Source: a virus
Lineage: Duplodnaviria; Heunggongvirae; Uroviricota; Caudoviricetes
Strand: one strand, 5' to 3'
Virus record (IMG/VR): IMGVR_UViG_2681813182_000003
DNA length: 5,422 bases
The position numbers were made by a program, and so were the translations under genes. The notes beneath the pieces were generated by a model that did no database searches, was not told the DNA's origin, and saw nothing but the letters and a program-made list of their open reading frames with translations. Positions 1 through 5,422 of the stretch are shown here, piece by piece; positions within the stretch are counted from its first letter, which is position 1; each line of letters opens with the position of its first letter.

Positions 1-10
1 GGGGCGGGAT

Positions 11-226
11 ATGTATCAGATGGAAAAAATATCAACAGGCATTGCCTACGGCACCTCCGCCGGCAGTGCCGGCTACTGGTTTTTGCAGTGGTTGGATCAG
101 GTCAGTCCATCACAGTGGGCTGCGATTGGTGTGCTGGGAAGTCTGCTTCTGGGGCTTCTGACTTATCTGACAAATCTGTATTTCAAAATAAGAGAAGACA
201 AGCGTAAGGCTGCGAGAGGTGAATAA
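11..226 (+). CDS. S: Class II holin / pinholin, phage 21 S-like, with dual-start motif (Met1 and Met4)
   Basis: 71 aa. The N-terminus MYQMEK has two in-frame Met codons (11 and 20), like the S21 antiholin/holin pair. Two hydrophobic segments: a Gly/Ala/Ser-rich SAR-like TMD1 ([22 protein letters not shown]) and TMD2 ([23 protein letters not shown]), then a charged C-terminal tail ([13 protein letters not shown]). The stop overlaps the endolysin start (TAATG). Near-identical to my recollection of phage 21 S / E. coli essD. Confidence 0.9.
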
Positions 227-723
227 TGTCGCCATCATTACGCAAGGCTGTTGCAGCTGCTATTGGTGGTGGGGCTGTTGCTATAGCATCTGTGTTAATC
301 ACTGGCCCAGGTGGTAACGATGGTCTGGAAGGTGTCAGCTACATACCATACAAAGATATCATTGGTGTATGGACTGTATGTCACGGACACACCGGAAAAG
401 ACATCATGCTCGGTAAAACGTATACCGAAGCAGAATGCAAAGCCCTCCTGAATAAAGACCTTGCCACTGTCGCCAGACAAATTAACCCGTACATCAAAGT
501 CGATATACCGGAAACAACGCGCGGCGCTCTTTACTCGTTCGTTTACAACGTGGGCGCTGGCAATTTCAGAACATCGACGCTTCTTCGCAAAATAAACCAG
601 GGCGATATCAAAGGCGCATGTGACCAGCTACGTCGCTGGACATATGCTGGCGGTAAGCAATGGAAAGGGCTGATGACCCGTCGTGAGATTGAGCGTGAAG
701 TCTGTTTGTGGGGGCAGCAATGA
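226..723 (+). CDS. R: SAR endolysin (phage 21 R-like lysozyme, T4-lysozyme fold, GH24)
   Basis: 165 aa. N-terminal signal-arrest-release segment rich in Gly/Ala ([20 protein letters not shown]). Catalytic triad at the expected positions E35, D44, T50 ([17 protein letters not shown]). GAGG lies 6 nt upstream of the ATG. Start overlaps the holin stop; stop overlaps the Rz start (ATGA). Confidence 0.95.
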
Positions 724-1184
724 GCAGAGTCACCGCGATTATCTCCGCTCTGGTTATCTGCATCATCGTCTGCCTGTCATGGGCTGTTAATCATTACCGT
801 GATAACGCCATTACCTACAAAGAGCAGCGCGACAAAAACGCAAGAGAACTGAAGCTGGCGAACGCAACCATTACTGACATGCAGCAGAGACAGCGTGATG
901 TTAATGCACTCGATGCTAAATACACGAAGGAGTTAGCTGATGCGAAAGCTGAAAATGAAACTCTGCGCGCTGATGTTGCCGCTGGTCGTCGTCGGTTGCA
1001 CATCAAAGCAGTCTGTCAGTCAGTGCGTGAAGCCACCACCGCCTCCGGCGTGGATAATGCAACCAGCCCCCGACTGGCAGACACCGCTGAACGGGATTAT
1101 TTCACCCTCAGAGAGCGGCTGATGACGATGCAGATGCAACTGGAAGGGGCACAGGAGTATATCCGCACTCAGTGCATTAAGTAG
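720..1184 (+). CDS. Rz: Rz i-spanin (inner-membrane spanin subunit)
   Basis: The track ORF begins at GTG 708, but the ATG at 720 gives [21 protein letters not shown]..., matching the lambda Rz N-terminus as I recall it. N-terminal TM helix followed by a coiled-coil-like periplasmic domain. ATGA overlap with the endolysin stop. Confidence 0.93.
940..1122 (+). CDS. Rz1: Rz1 o-spanin (outer-membrane lipoprotein), embedded in the +1 frame of Rz
   Basis: 60 aa. Signal peptide with lipobox LVVVGC, proline-rich stretch PPPPP, and a lambda Rz1-like sequence. AAGGAG lies 8 nt upstream of ATG 940. Lies entirely inside Rz in another frame. Confidence 0.88.
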
Positions 1185-1226
1185 CCTTTTTATCGTGGTA
1201 AACATTTCGCAGGGTATGAGGTATTT

Positions 1227-1577
1227 ATGCCATCACTAATCCCACGTGCCTGCCGTAAGCGTGGATGTGCAGGTACAACCACAGACAGTTCGGGTTACTG
1301 CGATAAACATCGCGGTGAAGGCTGGGTGCAGCACCAGCGCGGACTGAGCCGCCACCAGCGTGGCTATGGCTCAAAATGGACGGTGATTCGTGCCCGTATT
1401 CTGAAGCGCGATAAAGGTCTGTGTCAGTTGTGTCTGCGTGTCGGTGTGGTGAGCGAGGCGAAAACCGTCGACCACATCATCCCGAAAGCGCATGGCGGAA
1501 CAGACGCAGACAGCAACCTGCAGAGTCTGTGCTGGCCCTGCCATAAAGCGAAAACAGCGCGCGAACGAATCCGGTGA
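1227..1577 (+). CDS. HNH endonuclease, phage packaging-associated
   Basis: 116 aa. HNH core DHIIPKAHGGTDADSNLQSLCWPCHKAKT with flanking Cys pairs (CQLC ... CWPC) and an N-terminal Cys/His cluster. GAGG lies 5 nt upstream of the ATG. Position immediately upstream of terS is typical of HK97-like packaging modules. Confidence 0.9.
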   Translation: MPSLIPRACRKRGCAGTTTDSSGYCDKHRGEGWVQHQRGLSRHQRGYGSKWTVIRARILKRDKGLCQLCLRVGVVSEAKTVDHIIPKAHGGTDADSNLQSLCWPCHKAKTARERIR

Positions 1578-1599
1578 TAATTATTCTCACTTGTAGGGA

Positions 1600-1659
1600 G
1601 GGGCGGGGCAAATCCCTGTGACCTGACGTCTTCCGGACTGCCCGCCCCATCGTTTTTTT
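1600..1659 (+). terminator. GC-rich inverted repeat plus T7 tract between the HNH gene and terS; candidate intrinsic terminator and/or cos/packaging site
   Basis: GGGGCGGG (1600-1607) is the perfect reverse complement of CCCGCCCC (1641-1648), extendable to 10 bp with one bulge. The loop is about 28-33 nt, followed by TTTTTTT (1653-1659). The loop is unusually large for a canonical terminator. Confidence 0.35.
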
Positions 1660-1698
1660 ATACCCGCGAAAAATGAAATTTAACCAGGAGTGCCGCAT

Positions 1699-2193
1699 AT
1701 GGCTGGAACGGCGGGGCGTTCCGGGCGTCGCCCCAAGCCAACGGCGCGCAAGGCGCTGGCCGGAAACCCCGGCAAGCGAGCCCTGAACAAAGATGAACCT
1801 GTTTTTACGCCCATCAAAGGTGTTGAGCCACCAGAGTGGTTCGCTGAAGAAGATCTCCCTCTCGCCACGATCATGTGGCAACTGACAACCAAAGAACTCT
1901 GCGGTCAGGGCCTGCTGTGCGTGACTGACCTGGCGGTACTTGAGCGGTGGTGCGTGGCCTATGAGTTCTGGCGACGTGCCGTGAAAAATATTGCCATACA
2001 GGGCAACACCATCACCGGTGCAATGGGCGGCAGGGTCAAAAATCCGGAGCTGACCGCCAAAAAAGAACAGGAGTCCGAGATGAGCAGCACGGGGGCAATG
2101 CTCGGACTCGACCCCAGCAGCCGCCAGCGTCTGATTGGCCTGGCGGGGCAGAAGAAAGCCACTAACCCGTTTCTGAAAATTATCGAATCATGA
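1699..2193 (+). CDS. Terminase small subunit, P27 family
   Basis: The track ORF begins at GTG 1690, but AGGAG (1686-1690) overlaps that codon and is correctly spaced for ATG 1699. N-terminus [31 protein letters not shown] is typical of P27-family terS. Stop overlaps the terL start (ATGA). Confidence 0.85.
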
Positions 2194-3923
2194 GCCGGAA
2201 ATCTTACCCCAACGTAAATGCTGCAAATCAGTATGCCCGGGATGTCGTGCGCGGAAAGATTGTTGCCTGCCAGTTTGTGATTCAGGCCTGCCAGCGCCAT
2301 CTTGATGACCTGATGGCGGAAAAAAGTAAGTCGTTTCGTTACCGCTTCGACAAGGACCTGGCTGAACGGGCCGCGAAATTTATTCAGCTGTTGCCGCACA
2401 CCAAGGGGGAGTGGGCATTCAAACGGATGCCCATCACGCTGGAGCCGTGGCAGCTATTTGTGATCTGCTGTGCGTTTGGCTGGGTCAATAAAGGCACCCG
2501 GTTGCGCCGCTTCCGGGAGGTGTACACCGAAATCCCCCGTAAGAACGGCAAATCAGCAATCTCTGCCGGTGTTGCCCTGTATTGTTTTGCCTGTGATAAC
2601 GAGTTTGGCGCGGAAGTGTATTCCGGTGCCACGACAGAGAAACAGGCGTGGGAAGTCTTTCGCCCGGCGCGACTGATGTGTAAACGCACACCCATGCTGA
2701 CGGAAGCGTTCGGGATTGAGGTTAACGCCTCAAACATGAACCGTCCGGAGGATGGCGCGCGGTTTGAACCGCTGATCGGCAACCCAGGTGATGGTTCATC
2801 ACCCCACTGTGCCGTGGTTGATGAATATCACGAGCATGCCACCGATGCGCTTTATACCACAATGCTTACCGGGATGGGGGCGCGACGTCAGCCACTGATG
2901 TGGGCCATCACCACCGCCGGGTACAACATTGAGGGGCCGTGCTACGACAAGCGGCGGGAAGTCATCGAGATGCTCAACGGCTCGGTGCCTAACGATGAAC
3001 TGTTCGGGATCATCTATACCGTTGATGAAGGTGACGACTGGACCGGCCCGCAGGTGCTGGAAAAAGCCAATCCAAATATTGGCGTGTCGGTTTATCGCGA
3101 ATTTTTGTTAAGTCAGCAGCAGCGTGCGAAAAATAACGCCCGTCTGGCAAACGTCTTTAAAACAAAACACCTCAATATCTGGGTGTCGGCGCGTTCGGCG
3201 TATTTCAACTTGGTGAGCTGGCAGAGCTGCGAGGATAAATCACTGACCCTTGAGCAGTTCGAGGGGCAGCCGTGCATTCTGGCCTTTGACCTGGCGCGTA
3301 AGCTGGATATGAACAGCATGGCGCGACTTTATACCCGCGAGATTGACGGTAAAACGCATTACTACAGTGTGGCCCCGCGTTTCTGGGTACCGTATGACAC
3401 GGTGTACAGCGTCGAGAAAAATGAAGATCGACGGACAGCCGAACGCTTTCAGAAATGGGTGGAAATGGGCGTTCTGACCGTTACCGATGGTGCGGAGGTG
3501 GATTATCGCTACATCCTCGAGGAGGCCAAAGCGGCGAACAAAATCAGCCCGGTCAGTGAGTCACCCATCGACCCCTTCGGGGCGACCGGGTTGTCACATG
3601 ACCTTGCTGATGAAGACCTGAATCCCGTCACTATCGTCCAGAACTTCACCAATATGTCCGATCCGATGAAAGAGCTGGAAGCAGCGATTGAATCGGGACG
3701 TTTTCATCATGACGGCAATCCCATCATGACCTGGTGTATCGGCAACGTGGTCGGCAAAAACATGCCGGGTAACGATGATGTGGTGAAACCCGTCAAAGAG
3801 CAGGCGGAAAACAAAATCGATGGTGCAGTTGCGCTGATTATGGCGGTTGGCAGAGCCATGCTGTACGAGAAAGAAGACACGCTGTCTGACCACATTGAGT
3901 CCTACGGGATCCGCTCGCTTTAA
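2190..3923 (+). CDS. Terminase large subunit (ATPase/nuclease)
   Basis: 577 aa. Deviant Walker A-like P-loop ([12 protein letters not shown]), Walker B-like hydrophobic run ending in acidic residues (CAVVDEYHE), C-terminal nuclease-like region ([15 protein letters not shown]). Translationally coupled to terS. Confidence 0.93.
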
Positions 3924-3934
3924 CTGAGGTAATT

Positions 3935-4117
3935 ATGATCATGCTGATTCTCGCGCCTCTGGTGGGCGTGCTGGGTGCGCTTTTGCTGGCGTATGGTGCC
4001 TGGCTGATTTATCCCCCGGCGGGTTTTGTTGTTGCCGGGGCGCTGTGCCTGTTCTGGTCGTGGCTGGTGGCGCGATATCTCGACCGTACACGGCAGTCTG
4101 TCGGCGGAGGTAAATAG
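3935..4117 (+). CDS. Hypothetical small membrane protein (60 aa, two predicted TM helices)
   Basis: GAGG (3926-3929) lies 5 nt upstream of ATG 3935. Codon usage looks enteric (CTG, GCG, GTG rich). Two hydrophobic helices ([22 protein letters not shown] and [19 protein letters not shown]) and a basic C-terminus. The stop TAG overlaps the portal GTG (TAGTG), and the portal SD GGAGGT sits in its last codons. Confidence 0.55.
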
Positions 4118-5273
4118 TGTTCTTTTCGGGATTATTTCAACGAAAAAGCGATGTGCCGGTGACCACGCCAGCAGAACTGCTGATGCTATCGGGCTGTCAT
4201 ACGACACCTATACCGGAAAGCGGATCAGTAGCCAGCGGGCCATGCGCCTGACGGCGGTCTATTCTTGCGTCAGGGTGCTGGCAGAGTCTGTTGGTATGCT
4301 GCCCTGCAGTCTCTACAAAATCAGCGGTACCCTGAAAACACGGGCGGTGGATGAACGACTGCATAAGTTGGTTTCGGCAAAACCTAATGGCTACATGACA
4401 CCGCAGGAATTCTGGGAGCTGGTTATTGTCTGCCTGTGTCTACGGGGGAATTTTTACGCCTACAAGGTAAAGGCACTGGGAGAAGTGGTGGAGCTTCTTC
4501 CGATAGATCCGGGCTGTGTGGAACCGAAGCTGAACAGCCAGTGGCAGCCGGTTTATCAGGTGACGTTTCCGGATGGTTCCGTGGATGTGTTGACCCAGAA
4601 TGAAATCTGGCATGTGCGCACCCTGACGCTGGATGGACTTGTCGGGCTGAATCCCATTGCGTATGCGCGTGAGGCCATTTCACTGGCAGCGGCAACCGAG
4701 GAGCACGGTGCCAGGTTGTTTAGTAATGGTGCGGTGACATCCGGTGTGTTGCGTACGGAACAAAAGCTCACGCCGGATGCTTACGAGCGTCTGAAGAAAG
4801 ATTTTGAGGAGTGTCACACGGGGCTTGGCAATGCTCACCGCCCGATGATTCTGGAAATGGGGCTGGACTGGAAGTCGATGGCGCTGAACGCCGAGGACAG
4901 TCAGTTCCTGGAAACCCGCAAGTTTCAGCTGGAAGAAATCTGTCGTCTGTTCCGGGTGCCGTTGCACATGGTGCAGAACACCGATCGCGCCACCTTCAAC
5001 AATATCGAAGAGCTGGGGCTGGGATTTATCAACTATTCACTGGTGCCGTATCTGACCCGCATCGAACAGCGGATCAACACCGGACTGGTACGAAAAAGTA
5101 AGCAGGGCGTTTATTACGCCAAATTTAACGCCGGGGCGTTACTGCGCGGGGATATGAAGTCCCGTTTTGAAGCCTACGCCACCGGGATCAACTGGGGAAT
5201 TTACTCTTCCAATGACTGCCGCGACCTGGAAGATATGAATCCGCGTCCCGGTGGTGTAATGCCGATCAGTTAA
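4117..5273 (+). CDS. Phage portal protein, HK97 family, with a frame change near 4190-4212 (possible pseudogene or sequencing error)
   Basis: GGAGGT (4106-4111) lies 5 nt upstream of GTG 4117. That frame encodes MFFSGLFQRKSDVPVTTPAELLMLSGCHTTP and stops at 4249-4251. The long ORF ending at 5273 is in the -1 frame relative to it and has no ATG/GTG/TTG start downstream of the small ORF before 4242. Its body carries the conserved portal N-terminal motif (AMRLTAVYSCVRVLAESVGMLPCSLY). The track start at TTG 4026 would give an implausible Cys/Trp/Arg-rich N-terminus. Confidence 0.8.
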
Positions 5274-5305
5274 GGATCAGTTGACCGATCCAGTGGCTGT
5301 GTAAG

Positions 5306-5340
5306 AATCCGGAAACGCTCACTTGTTTCCGGATTTTTTT
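5306..5340 (+). terminator. Perfect 11-bp hairpin plus T7 tract (intrinsic-terminator-like) immediately upstream of the transposase ATG
   Basis: AATCCGGAAAC (5306-5316) pairs perfectly with GTTTCCGGATT (5325-5335), with an 8-nt loop. The T-run 5334-5340 abuts ATG 5341. Confidence 0.6.
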
Positions 5341-5422
5341 ATGCACATTGGACAGGCTCTTGATCTGGTATCCCGTTACGATTCTCTGCGTAACCCACTG
5401 ACTTCTCTGGGGGATTACCTCG
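5341..5422 (+). CDS. insG: IS4-family (DDE) transposase, N-terminal fragment (truncated by window end)
   Basis: ATG 5341 opens a reading frame that runs to the window end. The first 27 residues match my memory of IS4 InsG. There is no phage-module context and no conventional SD; the start is buried next to the hairpin. Confidence 0.55.
   Translation, partial: MHIGQALDLVSRYDSLRNPLTSLGDYL

Follow-up and report, generated by a model that had tools for sequence, protein, structure and literature searches.

The stretch of DNA analyzed here, 5,422 nucleotides (nt) of a Caudoviricetes virus record (IMG/VR record IMGVR_UViG_2681813182_000003, hereafter the window), ends in the left end of the insertion sequence IS4. 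IS4 was among the earliest insertion sequences to be described, and to our knowledge its regulation has hardly been studied. In the window, the start codon of the IS4 transposase gene (insG) is directly preceded by a hairpin and a run of seven T. To judge from sequence comparison across relatives, this motif of a classical insertion sequence is a real regulatory RNA structure that has been conserved. We think it likely, with a probability of roughly 0.6, that the hairpin and the U-run of the transcript act as a built-in insulator by which IS4 tells foreign transcripts from its own. The evidence comprises the structure itself, its covariation and strandedness, a terminator-like score, the placement of a promoter-like site within the hairpin, and a mapped 3' end at the right end of the element.

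A conserved RNA hairpin in IS4

From position 5257 on, the window is the same as the IS4 of Escherichia coli K-12 (Table 1). Among the 5426 complete E. coli genomes searched, 2591 have matches annotated as 'IS4-like element IS4 family transposase'. The left inverted repeat, which is conserved in relatives, was compared with the reverse complement of the right end (TAATGCCAGTCAGTTAAG), and in the K-12 copy in mlc (mlc::IS4) a matching repeat marks the right end and 13 bp of the target are duplicated. The annotation of MG1655 describes a mobile element IS4 of 1426 bp with the insG ATG 84 nt inside. Full-length K-12 InsG has 442 amino acids with the Pfam domains Nterm_IS4 and DDE_Tnp_1. The window holds only its first 27 codons, which are the same as in K-12 insG, and the relatives of InsG have 442 amino acids and start at the same methionine. 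Thousands of IS4 copies in E. coli, sitting in unrelated contexts, have the identical hairpin. These comparisons indicate that the hairpin is an internal, integral and conserved part of IS4 and not of the phage. A first-pass annotation of the window had tied it to the phage late operon, and this link does not hold.

Table 1. Features of the IS4 left end and of the interrupted prophage gene, in window coordinates
Feature	Position	Strand	Details
IS4 left end	5257-5422	+	first 166 bp of 1426, truncated at the end of the window; 100% identity to K-12 IS4
IS4 left terminal inverted repeat TAATGCCGATCAGTTAAG	5257-5274	+	18 bp; 16/18 match to right end
Three-frame stop codons preceding the hairpin	5257-5304	+	TAA 5257, TAA 5271, TGA 5282, TAA 5302
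Promoter-like site	5281-5308	+	-35 TTGACC 5281-5286, 16-nt spacer, TG 5300-5301, -10 AAGAAT 5303-5308
Predicted start of IS4's own transposase transcript	5313-5317 (~5315)	+	~26 nt before ATG; 7 ± 2 nt after the -10
Hairpin 5' arm AATCCGGAAAC	5306-5316 (perfect core); 5303-5317 (extended)	+	read off the sequence, folding
Hairpin loop GCTCACTT	5317-5324 (8 nt, perfect-stem version); 5318-5323 (6 nt, minimum-energy fold)	+	
Hairpin 3' arm GTTTCCGGATT	5325-5335 (perfect core); 5324-5338 (extended)	+	holds GGA 5331-5333
T7 tract	5334-5340	+	U-run of the terminator-like motif, runs into the start codon
Start of the IS4 transposase gene (insG)	5341-5422	+	first 27 codons MHIGQALDLVSRYDSLRNPLTSLGDYL; identity to K-12 insG
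Prophage portal gene	4117-5256	+	IS4 after ~codon 380 of 413; frameshift near 4178

Positions 5303-5343 read AAGAATCCGGAAAC-GCTCACTT-GTTTCCGGATTTTT-TT-ATG, with the ATG at 5341-5343. The first-pass annotation had described a perfect 11-bp stem, an 8-nt loop and seven T that run into ATG 5341, and this can be read directly from the sequence: the 11 pairs of 5306-5316 with 5325-5335 are all Watson-Crick. A repeat search lengthens the arms to 14 nt with one G.T pair (5303-5316/5325-5338). ViennaRNA extends them to 15 pairs (5303-5317/5324-5338), with one G.U and flanking A-U pairs, around a 6-nt loop. Depending on the version of the stem, pairing takes in two to five T at the start of the run; in the 11-bp stem, the first two form the last two pairs and five T are free. 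Alone, the hairpin has a folding energy of -18.3 kcal/mol; its G+C core (5308-5333) has -13.5 kcal/mol. A folding check had been proposed for the RNA around 5300-5360. Run on 5296-5360, it forms the hairpin at -23.5 kcal/mol, compared with -12.2 ± 2.7 kcal/mol in 200 dinucleotide shuffles, none of which was as stable (z = -4.26). In the whole window, the hairpin is the sole inverted repeat with arms of at least 10 nt lying at most 20 nt apart. A known RNA family was considered and rejected, since Rfam 15 gives no match within 5257-5422; its sole match over the window is a chance one to mir-200 (3714-3788), well below the threshold of that family.

The minimum-energy fold also contains a second helix of 6 bp, UGUGUA 5298-5303 with UGCACA 5342-5347, stacked under the main hairpin. 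In read-in RNA, it would enclose codon 2 together with the UG of the start codon. The enterobacterial relatives show only one-sided, wobble-compatible changes in this helix, and we do not rely on it.

To place the hairpin in the IS4 group, we sampled one genome per species among gammaproteobacterial relatives (Enterobacterales, Halomonas, Legionellaceae, Ferrimonas, Pseudaeromonas, Corallincola, and others). This gave 25 distinct left ends with transposase identities of 55-100%. All 25 have, at the homologous locus, a hairpin of 10-17 bp that ends 0-7 nt before the ATG. Of these left ends, 22 retain a run of five to eight T adjoining the ATG, and GGA together with such a run is likewise found in 22. 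At its base, TCCGGA...TCCGGA, the stem hardly varies across the relatives. The upper stem is wholly different in each lineage, with both sides changed (GAAAC/GTTTC, CCAG/CTGG, GTGATC/GATCAC, GTATCAG/CTGATAC, GAGTTC/GAACTC). The loop measures 3-13 nt, is freely variable in sequence, and changes in length by non-multiples of three, which excludes a coding role or a protein site of fixed geometry.

Covariation was tested in a MAFFT alignment (A3) on the named 15-pair helix, with 500 column shuffles as control. Standard pairs are formed by 94.4% of the helix cells, compared with 35-62% when the partners are slid by 1-3 columns. Compensatory (double) changes occur in 12 of the 15 pairs, compared with 6.8 ± 1.2 in the column shuffles, and the covariation score is 0.555, compared with 0.206; none of the 500 shuffles reached either value. 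RNAalifold predicted the same helix without being supplied with it. The helix contains 33 G.U cells and 4 A.C cells, over at least 10 column/type combinations. This asymmetry argues that the selected structure is the sense-strand RNA of the transposase, and neither duplex DNA nor antisense RNA.

The asymmetry is also relevant to the possibility that the palindrome acts as DNA, either as an operator where a dimeric protein (the transposase or a host factor) sits over the promoter, or as a cruciform in transposition. Such a role would suit the overlap with the -10 and the constancy of the TCCGGA half-sites, and co-evolving half-sites can mimic covariation. However, an excess of G.T over A.C is meaningless for duplex DNA, and both the arm spacing and the stem length vary among relatives. 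The position of the palindrome is fixed relative to the ATG, while the distance from the inverted repeat to the ATG is 81-91 nt. The G.U/A.C asymmetry and the inconstant distance between the arms led us to reject a protein-binding palindrome or cruciform, which we consider very improbable. We give practically no chance to a hairpin that arose fortuitously or to one that serves the phage as the terminator of its portal gene. The hairpin does adjoin the stop that ends the truncated portal frame, but this stop (TAA 5271-5273, of the open reading frame 4026..5273) and the hairpin both fall inside IS4. Intact homologous prophages have the portal gene followed by the prohead protease gene, with no hairpin sequence between them. 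Both versions are refuted by these observations, together with the z-score, the uniqueness of the repeat in the window and the covariation given above.

Transcript start, translation, and termination

The hairpin overlaps a promoter-like site (Table 1). In a consensus promoter scan, the TTGACC/AAGAAT pair matches 9 of 12 positions and has in addition an extended -10 TG (TGtAAGAAT), and the -10 hexamer AAGAAT is the outer part of the 5' arm. Weighted scoring gives this arm-embedded site 13.6; the next score in the window, 9.8, belongs to a shifted version of the same site. The arm-overlapping site ranked first in 22 of the 25 elements, the scored form being a -35 TTGAnn or similar, usually a 16-nt spacer, and a -10 nAnAAT in the outer 5' arm. 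In these 22 relatives, the predicted starts lie within the 5' arm, at 7-14 nt from its beginning and, in 20 cases, at 11-14 nt. RNA that begins at 5315 lacks the 5' arm, folds at only -3.3 kcal/mol and leaves GGA-U7-AUG open. We infer from the sequence that the own start of IS4 lies near 5315, inside the 5' arm, and that the native mRNA is unable to fold the hairpin. With the -10 inside the 5' arm, the hairpin would form only in transcripts started upstream, outside IS4.

If the native transcript started instead upstream of 5303, every transposase mRNA would bear the hairpin as a constitutive leader, and the element would be kept at permanently low expression by attenuation or by occlusion of the Shine-Dalgarno (SD) sequence. 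IS200 has such a constitutive SD-occluding stem-loop of its own (PMC4513863), the start at ~5315 is a prediction, and in three Halomonas-type relatives (L062, L066, L071) the best promoter-like matches lie upstream of the arm or away from it. We nevertheless find this improbable. No promoter-like site of the window comes near the arm-embedded one in score, the placement of that site recurs in 22 of the 25 elements, and a U7 terminator in its own leader would nearly abolish the transposase mRNA.

The sole anti-SD match before the ATG is GGA 5331-5333 (-3.3 kcal/mol, 7 nt from the AUG), which lies inside the 3' arm, as it also does in relatives. The stem in the window ends 2 nt before the AUG. 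This placement of the 3' arm, which is of the kind known from fold-back inhibition, is found in all relatives. The SD is intrinsically weak and, from the modeled fold, would be hidden whenever the hairpin forms, and we propose that this masking would block translation of read-in RNA. The earlier statement that there is no free SD is thus right for the folded form. The accompanying statement that the hairpin limits translation initiation applies to read-in RNA, where GGA is held in the 3' arm, and not to the own transcript, whose predicted start is inside the 5' arm; the block would be conditional on where the transcript starts.

One could suppose that this translational fold-back is all there is, with GGA and AUG hidden in read-in RNA as in IS10 and IS50 and no useful termination. 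The U-run would then be a partner of the A-rich -10 and/or an A/U-rich leader for ribosome loading. In line with this, the Halomonas-type relatives have strong stems (-21 to -26 kcal/mol for the scored stem-loop) without a U-run, and their 3' arms carry SD sequences of the GGGAAG type (GGGAAG, GGGACG or GGGAAAGG). Pairing with the A residues of the -10 takes up two to five T of the run, and the SD-like GGA is nearly invariant. Yet the T-run is kept in 22 of the 25 elements, including two (L061 and L063) whose run forms no pairs at all with the 5' arm, and the unpaired T, 0-7 in number, always adjoin the ATG. Moreover, the terminator score of the left-end hairpin is positive and higher than that of a hairpin at the right end of IS4 that has a mapped 3' end (see below). 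We therefore consider a purely translational role unlikely.

The left-end motif has the anatomy of an intrinsic terminator: a core of -13.5 kcal/mol, a loop of 6-8 nt and U7 directly 3' of the stem. With a d'Aubenton-Carafa-type discriminant, the motif scores about +23 when read on the sense strand but -21 on the other. A bidirectional terminator was rejected on this negative score and on the poor T tail of the minus strand (TTCTTAC). The discriminant is positive in 22 of the 25 relatives (range 9.7-47.6), and all of these values exceed that of the right-end hairpin (d = 0.9), which can serve as a yardstick because it has a mapped 3' end despite its low score. This right-end hairpin lies outside the window (L082 595-628, MG1655 4502094-4502127). 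There, the right inverted repeat and its internal complement, GCCAGTCAGTT / AACTGACTGGC, form an 11-bp hairpin followed by TCTTTTT, which faces inward and is antisense to insG. Term-seq data show a 3' end at MG1655 4502127(+), directly after the right-end T-run, in two growth conditions (Adams et al. 2021; PMC7815308). The hairpin and T-run are present in all 18 IS4 relatives that were checked for them. By its sequence features, the left-end motif would likewise terminate transcription that reads into IS4.

The insulator that we propose would work as follows. Read-in RNA from the left flank, here from the portal/late region of a prophage, would carry both arms. Ribosomes on this RNA would be released by the three-frame stops within the 48 nt at the tip of IS4. 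Having left the RNA 30 nt or more ahead of the 5' arm, they could not melt the hairpin. The RNA would then fold (from -13.5 kcal/mol for the G+C core to -18 kcal/mol for the 15 pairs) with U7 directly after the stem, and the polymerase would be released at ~5338-5343, at or just before the AUG. In transcripts that escape termination, the weak GGA and most of the U-run would be locked in the stem, and initiation would be poor. The own transcript, starting at ~5315 without the 5' arm, would escape both termination and occlusion. Through this block and the right-end terminator, transcription from outside would be shut out of IS4 on either side. The first-pass annotation had already proposed an insulating hairpin. 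What stands of it is the terminator-like shield combined with hiding of the ribosome-binding site, the version best supported by the anatomy, the covariation, the strand asymmetry and the U-run; the embedded promoter and the IS4 origin had been missed.

Several points weigh against this proposal. The promoter is a consensus match only, with a weak -10 (AAGAAT). Part of the U-run pairs with the A-rich -10, and some of the conservation of the U-run could be a by-product of the promoter. The three Halomonas-type relatives keep the hairpin with neither the U-run nor a -10 in the arm. Their shared lack of both suggests that the A-rich -10 and the U-run are evolutionarily coupled, and the ancestral or minimal role of the hairpin may be SD occlusion and not termination. 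The discriminant is of d'Aubenton-Carafa type, and its values are to be taken as approximate. A consensus terminator scan of the window did not call the left-end site; in our reading, its rule probably stretches the stem via G.T and A.T pairs into the T-run and leaves too few T in the tail. Finally, the MG1655 Term-seq tables (Adams et al. 2021) list no 3' end at the IS4 left end (45034xx/45035xx). This absence carries no information, since nanX on the flank is divergent and no transcription enters the element there.

A broader version of the proposal would hold for the IS4 group as a whole. In it, one module of ~60 nt superimposes the -10, a Rho-independent terminator and the ribosome-binding site, self is discriminated from foreign at both termination and translation, and the right-end terminator seals the element. 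The superimposed module is conserved with covariation across the gammaproteobacterial relatives, down to 55% transposase identity. We put this version forward tentatively, with chances somewhat short of even.

The prophage and the annotation of the element

The DNA to the left of IS4 (1-5256) is the late region of a lambdoid/HK97-like prophage. All genes are on the + strand, in the order holin, lysozyme, Rz, HNH endonuclease, small and large terminase, and portal. IS4 lies near the 3' end of the portal gene (Table 1) and is oriented along late transcription. Relative to a homologous E. coli prophage, the portal gene has a deletion of 1 nt near 4178 (GAACT-GCTG vs GAGCTGGCAG). The true portal start, GTG 4117, meets a stop at 4251, and the remainder of the protein is in another frame. 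From this comparison, the listed open reading frame 4026..5273 appears to be an artefact of the rule used to define such frames. Unless the deletion is a sequencing error, the portal gene would have been damaged twice, by the frameshift and by IS4, and the prophage seems to be already defective. As a consequence of the frameshift, untranslated portal RNA would meet Rho before it reaches IS4.

Late transcription in lambdoid phages is carried out by a Q-modified, antiterminated polymerase that is resistant to terminators. For this reason, a terminator would be least effective against precisely the read-through from a late operon, and only the translational block would be left. During induction of this prophage, the terminator would probably be read through, with SD masking alone left to act.

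Against the best of the 5426 complete E. coli genomes, the prophage part of the window shows only ~92% identity, in contrast to 100% between its IS4 part and K-12 IS4. Possible hosts are a non-coli Escherichia, a close relative, or a carrier of a divergent lambdoid prophage; IS4 itself seems to have arrived recently. Immediately left of the element, 27 nt (5230-5256) resemble the flank of the unrelated mlc::IS4 insertion of K-12 (L001 1793-1820), the shared positions being …GAT.AA.C…C.CG.TGGT.|TAATGCC. In most other IS4 copies, the last few bases of the flank are G-rich. The likeness between the two flanks fits the reported target-site preference of IS4.

The IS4 transposase of RefSeq/PGAP (WP_000483767.1) has 448 amino acids and begins at a TTG 18 nt upstream of the ATG. 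In the window, this start is at 5323 and the added codons cover 5323-5340 (L001 1887-1904), within the hairpin loop and the 3' arm. We rejected the TTG start: the codon is not conserved (CCG, TCG, and others in its place), it is out of frame in one relative (L025), and the homologues have 442 amino acids. The extension by 6 codons into the hairpin thus looks like an error of the annotation pipelines.

The first part of the element has further features of note. One of the stop codons ahead of the hairpin consists of the first three bases of the inverted repeat, one lies within the repeat, and one derives from the -35 hexamer (TGA in TTGACC). The left end also holds three GATC (Dam) sites: one inside the inverted repeat (5264-5267), one just after it (5275-5278), and one that abuts the -35 (5287-5290; TTGACCGATC). 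All three are kept in the distant relatives L059, L079 and L080 (55-58% transposase identity), which suggests that Dam controls the IS4 promoter and/or end activity, as in IS10 and IS50.

Relation to other insertion sequences

The first-pass annotation had referred to similar arrangements in other insertion sequences, and precedents do exist in IS200 and in IS10 and IS50. The left end of IS200 in Salmonella and E. coli has a Rho-independent terminator (nt 12-34) against impinging transcription and, in the 5' untranslated region of tnpA, a stem-loop that occludes the SD (PMC4513863; PMC3196728). IS200 shares with IS4 an inward-facing hairpin of terminator type between the tip of the element and the transposase start, a native start placed after this hairpin (a prediction in IS4), initiation signals held in a stem, and the purpose, proposed for IS4, of guarding against outside transcription and keeping transposase output low. 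The two differ in that IS200 uses two separate hairpins, of which the SD-occluding one is present in the native mRNA, whereas we propose for IS4 a single hairpin that forms in foreign transcripts only. Also, the IS200 terminator is described as bidirectional, whereas the left-end motif of IS4 scores on the sense strand only, and the transposases are unrelated (HUH in IS200, DDE in IS4).

IS10 and IS50 belong to the same family as IS4 (IS4 family, DDE_Tnp_1). Their promoters are weak and Dam-sensitive, with Dam sites in the promoter region, and their ribosome-binding sites are weak as well (PMC4265352). The layout is also that of IS4: an inverted repeat near the left end, a distal arm over the ribosome-binding region, and an own promoter that fires between the arms (as predicted in IS4), so that read-in RNA alone can fold. 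Fold-back inhibition of externally initiated transcripts of IS10 and IS50 was reportedly described by Davis, Simons and Kleckner in 1985, by Krebs and Reznikoff in 1986, and by Schulz and Reznikoff in 1991. The block in IS10 and IS50 is translational, and their structure contains no U-run terminator. IS4 differs from them by a short-range hairpin with a loop of 6-8 nt, by the U7 that follows it, and by the -10 itself being in the 5' arm. IS10 uses in addition the antisense RNA-OUT; no antisense of this kind was seen for IS4, for which Rfam has no match at the site.

Within IS4, the right-end hairpin resembles the left-end one, as both are inward-facing hairpins with a T-run and both are conserved; the right-end one has the mapped 3' end. 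It differs from the left-end hairpin in being built from the terminal inverted repeat, in blocking antisense read-in, and in having no link to a promoter or ribosome-binding site. Compared with canonical intrinsic terminators, the left-end motif has the same G+C-containing stem of 9-15 bp, loop of 6-8 nt, uninterrupted U7, and upstream A-tract that can pair with the U-run. Its location is different: it precedes a start codon instead of following a stop codon, and it overlaps a -10 and an SD.

By analogy with these systems, IS4 would join an IS200-type terminator and an IS10/IS50-type fold-back in one hairpin. In the literature searched, we found nothing on a hairpin or terminator in IS4, nor on fold-back inhibition or impinging transcription for this element; the 1981 paper on the IS4 sequence or the 1998 review of Mahillon and Chandler may mention it. 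The class of mechanism is already known from IS10, IS50 and IS200. The IS4 hairpin is a computationally well-supported addition to this class, and the finding opens no new field.

If the proposal is true, IS4 joins IS10, IS50 and IS200 among the elements that shield their transposase from host read-through. Its design would be unusually economical, with a single hairpin that serves as terminator and SD mask and has the element's own promoter embedded in it. Insertions of IS4 would be strongly polar in the orientation of the transposase, due to a terminator ~80 nt inside the left end, and insertions in the opposite orientation would be polar via the right-end terminator. The module would thereby provide a ready-made, testable example of a terminator whose action depends on the transcription start site.

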